Part shown: in pieces, positions 1 through 773 of the stretch | Numbering within the stretch: position 1 is the first letter of the stretch | Layout: every line of letters begins with the position of its first letter | DNA from: Escherichia coli | GTDB lineage: Bacteria > Pseudomonadota > Gammaproteobacteria > Enterobacterales > Enterobacteriaceae | DNA length: 773 bases | Strand: one strand, 5' to 3' | Assembly: GCF_003334405.1 (NCBI RefSeq) | Contig: NZ_QOWM01000052.1 | Position numbers and translations under genes: made by a program | The notes under the pieces: generated by a model | The model's input: the letters and a program-made list of their open reading frames with translations, nothing else | Database searches by the model: none | What the model was told of the DNA's origin: nothing

Positions 1-773
1 GCCAGCGGCAGGCCGCGATGGTCGCAGTGGTACAGGTGGATTTTTCGCGCCGGCGTGTACACCGGGTCCATCTGGTTTTGCATCTGCTCCACGGTCAGGC
101 CGCACGATGCCAGCCAGCGGCGGCTTTCCTCACTCACCCGGTCAGCCAGGATTTCACTTTCCAGCCGGTCGAGCATCTGCACCAGCACCGGCGGGAACAC
201 CACACTGCCACCGTCTTCGCCGCCGGACTGCTGAAGGGTATCCGCCAGGCTGCGGCGCTGCGTTTTCGCCAGCTCACCGGTGGCGGTTTCAACCCTGATG
301 AGTGGCGTGAAGCTCCCCGGCTGATAAATCGTCTGGATGCGGGTTCTGTCGTTCTGTATCGTGGTCAGGCGGTCGCCGTCCCAGCCGTACCAGGTCACTT
401 GCGGTTTCCGTGACAGCGACATCCAGCCCGTCAGGTCCCGTTCACGCCGCCACACCCGTTTTGCCACCCTGCGGCCCAGCGGGTCGTAAAGATAGCGACT
501 TTCGACCAGCGGCTCTTCATATTGTGTCCGCGTGTAGTGCACCAGCCGGTGCTGACTGTCGTAATGGTACCGGTGAGTCCGCTCATCATCCGTGCGGATA
601 ACCCCTTCCGGGATGAGGTCGGTTTTCTCTGTCAGCCTGCCGTGACGGTCATACCGGTAAAGATAGTGCGCGTCACGGGCGATACGGTTATCCGGCCACA
701 TGCTGAGGGTGCTGTCCGGGTGCAGCTCCGGGTCGGGCAGGCGGTTACCTGCCGGGTCTGTGGCATACGGGAT
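1..773 (-). CDS. rhs: Rhs-family (YD-repeat) polymorphic toxin core protein, internal fragment; partial at both ends (N-terminal side beyond position 773, C-terminal side beyond position 1)
   Basis: Seen in sequence: the reverse-complement frame starting at position 773 (codon 1 = 773..771) runs 257 codons to position 3 with no stop, plus a 2-nt partial codon at 2..1. Hand translation: [258 protein letters not shown]. It contains canonical YD repeats ([42 protein letters not shown]) at roughly 25-38 residue spacing. Established knowledge, recalled not searched: this matches the C-terminal third of enterobacterial Rhs core proteins (E. coli RhsA/B/C-like). GC is about 63% by hand count, as expected for Rhs cores. 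The gene symbol is generic because core paralogs are near-identical and the distinguishing tip is outside the window. Confidence 0.93.

Follow-up and report, generated by a model that had tools for sequence, protein, structure and literature searches.

An internal fragment of an Escherichia coli Rhs core: GC-rich composition and its bearing on the origin of the element

The window analysed here, a stretch of 773 nucleotides of E. coli DNA, is spanned on its minus strand by a stop-free frame of 257 codons running from base 773 to base 3. This frame (3–773, 62.8 % GC, 76.7 % GC at third codon positions [GC3]) is a partial coding sequence that extends past both window ends and corresponds to residues 899–1155 of a 1,377-aa Rhs protein, in the core of the RhsA/B/C/F subfamily. 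Its translation matches the NCBIfam profile NF041261 (RHS_core) over positions 913–1169 of 1261 (E-value = 7e-167, 557 bits). NF041261 is an equivalog ("RHS element core protein") with a curated cut-off of 2,000 bits, which a 257-aa fragment is too short to attain; membership was therefore judged on the full-length gene of the 99.9 %-identical locus of E. coli H8, whose protein scores 2,647 bits, its residues 1–1247 spanning profile positions 1–1261. The matching stretch of H8 (L001, 20001–20773) lies within an annotated RHS element core protein, and the sole difference from this nearest complete genome, at window position 93, is a synonymous third-position one (ACC vs ACG, Thr, sense codon 227). 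By megablast, the window was found at 17,528 places in 3,885 of 5,426 complete E. coli genomes (median 5 per genome, best identity 99.9 %), always in genes annotated as RHS core, rhsA, rhsB or rhsC, so that the multi-copy chromosomal repetition characteristic of Rhs cores is present for this sequence.

The top-scoring YD repeat of the window lies at 525–593 on the minus strand (residues 61–83 of the window translation; TIGR01643, YD_repeat_2x, E = 9.6e-6), in the same region where the full protein gives weak matches to Pfam RHS_repeat; over the full H8 protein, TIGR01643 reaches E = 1e-40 and there are several PF05593 matches too. At the other end of the frame, positions 3–41 (minus strand; RhsA residues 1143–1155) hold the beginning of the Pfam "RHS protein" domain PF03527, which runs on outside the window: in a fragment beginning at RhsA residue 579, it was detected at residues 565–601, that is RhsA 1143–1179 (E = 1.7e-15). 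Judged by its sequence, the window comes from the interior of the conserved core of a minus-strand E. coli Rhs element gene, as the preliminary description had recognized, and by homology this core would form a YD-repeat shell enclosing a C-terminal toxin.

In H8, the match sits within rhsA, between yibF and yibA. The encoded protein has a DUF6531 match at its N-terminus (E = 9e-18), together with a weak Pfam PAAR motif (E = 0.19), and its Rhs-associated core domain (TIGR03696) covers aa 1170–1247. The core ends, outside the window, with PVTNTDPLGL (aa 1238–1247), an instance of the PxxxxDPxGL motif, and the variable tip that follows is an Ntox34 toxin (PF15606, E = 2e-42). The toxin tip varies among strains at this one rhsA locus (L062 5502–9731; L066 7434–12024; L067 and L068 5099–9689; L069 4213–9713; L065 4873–9752). 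In O157:H7, yibA and the Ntox34 tip have been lost, and the core runs straight into the orphan tip downstream; in three strains, an rhsB-type tip and yhhH are inserted before yibA; in one strain, a different tip is accompanied by an intact Imm57 gene, and one core is truncated beside an IS5. Two Chi octamers (CCACCAGC, locus plus strand) occur in the rhsA core, at about 21028 and 22828 of L001, both outside the window, which itself contains none.

The closest known systems are RhsA, RhsB and RhsC of K-12 (RhsA-B-C-F subfamily), to whose annotated cores the window is 99.6–99.9 % identical and from which it shows no substantive difference; K-12 RhsA lies in the same setting as the matching H8 locus (yibF-rhsA-yibA-orphan tip-yibG). 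The K-12 RhsD/E core has the same architecture but belongs to a separate subfamily, with 77 % nucleotide identity to the rhsA core. [quoted passage not shown] The latter stretch (window 3–260, minus strand) is unmatched in solved Rhs structures, the matches ending at residue 164–171, and it may be a clade-specific shell insertion located just before the PF03527 domain.

Counted over the window, G+C amounts to 486 of 773 bases (62.9 %), practically the figure of about 487, or 63 %, that had been obtained by hand, and the clear majority of G/C-ending codons noticed in the minus frame is one of 197 in 257 (76.7 %; GC1, GC2 and GC3 of 0.661, 0.455 and 0.767, respectively). The host baseline consisted of four 49-kb regions of K-12 and the H8 flanks, all stripped of Rhs elements (205,491 bases, 51.4 % GC). 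In 3,974 windows of 773 nt taken from it (mean 51.4 % GC, sd 4.8), the highest value was 61.6 %, short of 62.9 %, and no gene among the 138 predicted in it had a GC3 of at least 0.767 (mean 0.569, sd 0.071, maximum 0.752); mean GC1 and GC2 of these genes (0.602 and 0.408) are somewhat lower than those of the window. The 30 genes flanking H8 rhsA average 53.0 % GC (sd 3.2, maximum 59.4) and a GC3 of 0.575 (sd 0.048, maximum 0.661). The GC content of the window is beyond chance and beyond the variation of its host, and the sampled E. coli DNA falls short of the 60 % or so at which, as the preliminary description had pointed out, such a composition would be uninformative.

The rest of the gene and its neighbours deviate as well, and not all in the same direction. 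In H8, the rhsA core has 61.7 % GC (GC3 0.726), the tip 40.2 % (GC3 0.282) and yibA 33.7 %, and the same pattern of a GC-rich core followed by an AT-rich tip and an AT-rich immunity gene is found in K-12 rhsB, rhsC and rhsD. The cores of the four K-12 genes range from 61.3 % to 63.3 % GC, RhsA, RhsB and RhsC being alike (61.3–61.7 %, with tips at 37–42 %) and RhsD/E being GC-richer still (63.3 %, GC3 0.754, with an AT-rich tip of 36.7 %); tips as a whole lie at 37–42 % GC and a GC3 of 0.18–0.31, and base composition switches sharply at the core/tip junction. With 31–34 % GC, the immunity genes yibA, yhhH, ybfB and ybbC are poorer still. Cores thus deviate from the host mean by +2 to +2.8 sd, against −3 to −5 sd for tips and immunity genes: the AT-rich tip and immunity genes, which lie outside the window, are compositionally more deviant than the core. 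The preliminary claim that Rhs cores are markedly GC-richer than their host therefore holds for this one (61.7 % against 51.4 % in the sampled host, 40 % in the tip and 34 % in the immunity gene). High GC has been a hallmark of Rhs cores for so long that it has been textbook knowledge since the 1990s, when the laboratory of Hill reportedly described the GC-rich core and AT-rich tip. The combination of a G+C-rich core with an A+T-rich extension was restated by Jackson et al. (2009; PMC2935791), and this feature of Rhs elements is already known. [quoted passage not shown]

The same composition accounts for an open reading frame on the opposite strand. A mechanical ORF list contains a 131-aa antisense ORF at 18–413 on the plus strand, in codon register with the Rhs frame; the frame in which it lies has a single stop, and its longest open run, of 136 codons, contains this ORF, while the remaining two plus frames, with 12 and 6 stops, are unremarkable. 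Stops of the in-register antisense frame correspond to the sense codons TTA, CTA and TCA, with 0, 0 and 1 occurrences, respectively, among 26 Leu and 14 Ser codons, and it is because these codons are nearly unused that the frame is open. Simulations with host codon usage gave 5.3 ± 2.2 antisense stops, with at most one stop in 3 % of cases, whereas synonymous shuffles of the window itself gave exactly one every time. The 131-aa ORF is a by-product of the choice of G/C-ending codons and not a gene. The explanation of the stop-free antisense frames as a side effect of composition, already put forward in the preliminary description, is thus right for the in-register frame (1 stop vs 5.3 expected) but does not apply to the other two.

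The GC excess has two sources of unequal weight. Recoding the window protein according to synonymous codon usage in the host genes flanking rhsA yields 56.5 % GC and a GC3 of 0.588, compared with the observed 62.8 % and 0.767. The excess over host genes (53.0 %) is 9.8 points, approximately 3.5 of which are due to amino-acid content (about one third) and approximately 6.3 to synonymous choice (about two thirds). On the amino-acid side, Arg makes up 12.1 % of the window protein vs 5.3 % of host proteins; an excess is likewise seen for Thr, Tyr, Asp, Pro and His, and a deficit for Lys, Ile, Phe, Asn, Ala and Val. To measure codon adaptation, we derived relative adaptiveness from 29 ribosomal-protein and elongation-factor genes of K-12 (4,716 codons). 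The codon adaptation index (CAI) of the window is 0.389, at the 52nd percentile of the 138 host genes, and cores lie at 0.39 (51st–54th percentile) with the exception of the rhsD core (0.34, 25th percentile). Poor codon adaptation to the host is absent from the window and from the core and present only in the tips (0.22–0.26) and immunity genes (0.14–0.29), which occupy the 0–5th percentile. Comparison with ribosomal protein genes had been proposed as a further check on foreign origin; it places the window at the host median and does not mark the core as foreign.

Whether the element is accessory can be assessed without recourse to composition. With a query made of rhsA and yibF-selA-selB, the flank was found in all 5,426 of 5,426 genomes, and rhsA was covered there in 3,598 (66 %). 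In an ST131 genome, yibF begins 70 bp after yibH and the site is empty; alignment of the junctions sets 8,249 bp in H8 (L001 15409–23657) against 32 unrelated bases in ST131 (L056 8969–9000). This 8.2-kb presence/absence polymorphism with a clean empty site supports an accessory, acquired element independently of composition, and supports placing the rhsA element outside the E. coli core genome. Taken as a whole, the stretch between yibH and yibF has 48.9 % GC, made up of the core at 61.7 % and a remainder at 38.3 %, the other half of the element (toxin tip, immunity genes and orphan tips) being strongly AT-rich. No integrase, IS or tRNA is annotated within the H8 rhsA element, and no obvious direct repeats were seen at its junctions when these were read by eye; ISEc1/ISAs1 copies are present in the rhsB and rhsC elements of K-12. 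At the left junction in H8, a G-rich run (GGGGGAGGGGGGAG) directly follows the stop codon of yibH.

We next consider homologous cores in other hosts. One genome per species was scanned, starting from an alignment of 68–81 % identical homologues and seeding on WYGW[DE]GD and PYATDPAG, which gave 54 loci. DNA lying beyond 4.5 kb upstream and beyond 5 kb downstream of the core served as a proxy of host GC, a far flank of only 5–10 kb that may include islands and that in one case (L014) is probably still Rhs; flank GC was used in preference to the GC3 of far-flank stop-to-stop ORFs, which is unreliable in high-GC genomes owing to spurious antisense ORFs. Across 23 hosts with flanks of 37–69 % GC, the GC content of the core increases with that of the flank (r = 0.57, p = 0.004, slope 0.54). 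In 17 of the 17 hosts with flanks of 48–60 %, the core is GC-richer than the flank, by 7.2 ± 2.7 points. Values of core and flank are 43.9 % vs 37.3 % in Ignatzschineria and 45.8 % vs 47.2 % in Pragia, both low-GC hosts, and 67.3 % vs 68.8 % in Pseudomonas MRCP1333 and 63.1 % vs 66.8 % in Curvibacter, both high-GC hosts. Among the 54 loci, homologues with at least 54 % amino-acid identity are all from Enterobacteriaceae, with flanks of 50–58 % GC and the same offset. The E. albertii core (L002) is 92 % identical and equally GC-rich and lies at a different locus, having only the core in common with the rhsA locus. A GC-matched host with a close homologue was not found among these loci, such hosts carrying homologues of only 31–34 % identity, although seeding on two motifs could miss a close relative. 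These observations agree with the description of rhs as an ancient enterobacterial family, in which genes of the same clade differ in base composition between genomes in a host-dependent manner (Jackson et al. 2009; PMC2935791).

Two further observations came from the same scan. In Pseudomonas sp. RIT-PI-AD (L053 3125–3541), the core segment has 48.0 % GC and a GC3 of 0.367 vs 60.3 % GC in the flank; this outlier of opposite sign is a better candidate for recent transfer between genomes of different GC content than the E. coli core. E. coli-type Rhs-core DNA (73–100 % identity) was also found on contigs of 270–3,574 nt (L004, L013, L036, L043, L048, L052 and L054) in assemblies or MAGs labelled Collinsella, Bacillota, Jeotgalibacillus, Oscillospiraceae, Akkermansia, Lentisphaerae and Frankia, which most likely reflects contamination or mis-binning of enterobacterial reads.

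Because the offset is positive in every mid-GC host sampled, it behaves as a trait of the family rather than as the mark of one transfer into E. coli. We therefore consider it reasonably probable that the GC-rich codon style of the window is a trait of the Rhs lineage that is carried along with the element, and not the unameliorated imprint of a recent high-GC donor. The core moves as part of the 8.2-kb accessory element, and its codon style would travel with it within a pool of Rhs cores common to the Enterobacteriaceae. Of the preliminary interpretation of high GC as a sign of foreign origin, the accessory status of the element, an indel with an empty site, is what stands; a CAI at the host median, an offset that is family-wide and the lack, among the loci sampled, of a close homologue in a GC-matched host speak against reading that origin from GC itself. 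The composition of the core can neither date nor prove its acquisition.

The classical scenario differs in that the core would have come fairly recently from a donor of about 60–65 % GC and would still be unameliorated, the AT-rich tips having been acquired separately from low-GC donors. The title of Wang, Zhao and Hill (1998), as cited in PMC2935791, reflects such a view. It would explain why the core is a compositional outlier, with values that no host window (n = 3,974) and no host gene (n = 138) attains, and why composition is mosaic with a sharp core/tip switch, and it fits an indel that is empty in ST131 and occupied in 66 % of genomes. The expected donor, however, is not what the homologues at the sampled loci point to: those at or above 54 % identity reside in Enterobacteriaceae of 50–58 % flanking GC that show the same offset, the GC-matching Pseudomonas MRCP1333 and Curvibacter have cores of just 31–34 % identity, and the E. 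albertii core, 92 % identical and equally GC-rich, lies at another locus. A core CAI equal to the host median and the antiquity and host-dependent composition of the family (Jackson et al. 2009; PMC2935791) also argue against it, and we regard this scenario as possible but unlikely.

Alternatively, the high GC3 might be actively kept up in enteric hosts, be it through GC-biased gene conversion between the multiple core copies, which recombine, through selection acting on the sequence, or in some other way. Polymorphism data bear on this issue. The alignments cover the core and nine host genes next to it in 14 genomes whose rhsA locus is occupied; one empty-site genome was added for the flanks only. 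Minor alleles were taken as derived, which, like imported tracts, biases the estimate toward present GC; E. albertii (L002) was usable as an outgroup for the core only, so the host genes have no outgroup polarisation. With minor-allele polarisation, third positions of the core show 81 GC→AT and 57 AT→GC changes, giving an equilibrium GC3* of 0.65 (0.57–0.72), compared with 232 and 148 changes and a GC3* of 0.47 (0.42–0.52) for the nine host genes. The share of AT→GC changes in the core is 0.41, vs 0.25 predicted from host per-site rates (p = 3e-5; p = 0.015 for singletons). When the core is polarised by E. albertii, its GC3* drops to 0.56. Moreover, 110 of the 282 minor alleles (39 %) also occur in K-12 rhsB or rhsC, which indicates that much of the core polymorphism represents paralogue exchange; these shared alleles carry no extra AT→GC bias (GC3* 0.62 vs 0.67 for private ones). 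Isolated singletons, which come closest to representing new mutations, comprise 12 GC→AT and 4 AT→GC changes (n = 16), not distinguishable from the host prediction (p = 0.3). The core GC3* signal is fragile, because outgroup polarisation lowers the estimate, paralogue alleles contribute to it and isolated singletons are not distinguishable from the host prediction.

Active maintenance of high GC3 would, if true, explain both the offset of about 7 points seen in every mid-GC species sampled (17 of 17 hosts) and a raw GC3* of 0.56–0.65 where the host has 0.47. The raw AT→GC excess of the core is in its favour, as is the frequent exchange between paralogues. Against it, both minor-allele polarisation and imported tracts pull GC3* toward present GC, the E. 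albertii polarisation brings it down to 0.56, the paralogue-shared alleles are no more biased toward AT→GC than the private ones, and the isolated singletons do not depart from the host prediction; we find it rather improbable. The directions of substitution, fragile as they are, show neither faster decay than in host genes nor maintenance.

The same alignments reveal how loosely the core is constrained. SNPs at codon positions 1 and 2 relative to position 3 number 112/170 in the core vs 73/416 in the nine flanking host genes, and constraint on the rhsA core (L001 19727–23467 and the homologous stretches in L057–L069) is much weaker than on the genes next to it. Among the 14 cores, three (L060, L063 and L066) carry a pseudogene annotation, with an internal stop or frameshift.

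That the core has no special history at all, its GC resulting wholly from the amino-acid content of the YD repeats or from translational codon bias at a high expression level, is very improbable: the protein does contain much Arg, Pro, Asp and Thr and little Lys, Ile, Phe and Asn, with a GC1 and GC2 somewhat over the host means, but host synonymous usage would bring it to only 56.5 % GC and a GC3 of 0.588, and a CAI of 0.389 is merely average, unlike that of a highly expressed gene, so that both accounts were rejected as complete ones, amino-acid content covering about one third of the excess.

Taken for itself, the high GC of the window matters little, since it is a known property of Rhs cores; its use is that of a sanity check, which identifies the window as an Rhs core and accounts for the spurious antisense ORF. 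Its one wider bearing is cautionary. As the offset is family-wide, the CAI ordinary and the tip and immunity genes more deviant than the core, atypical GC alone is here a poor indicator of recent horizontal transfer.
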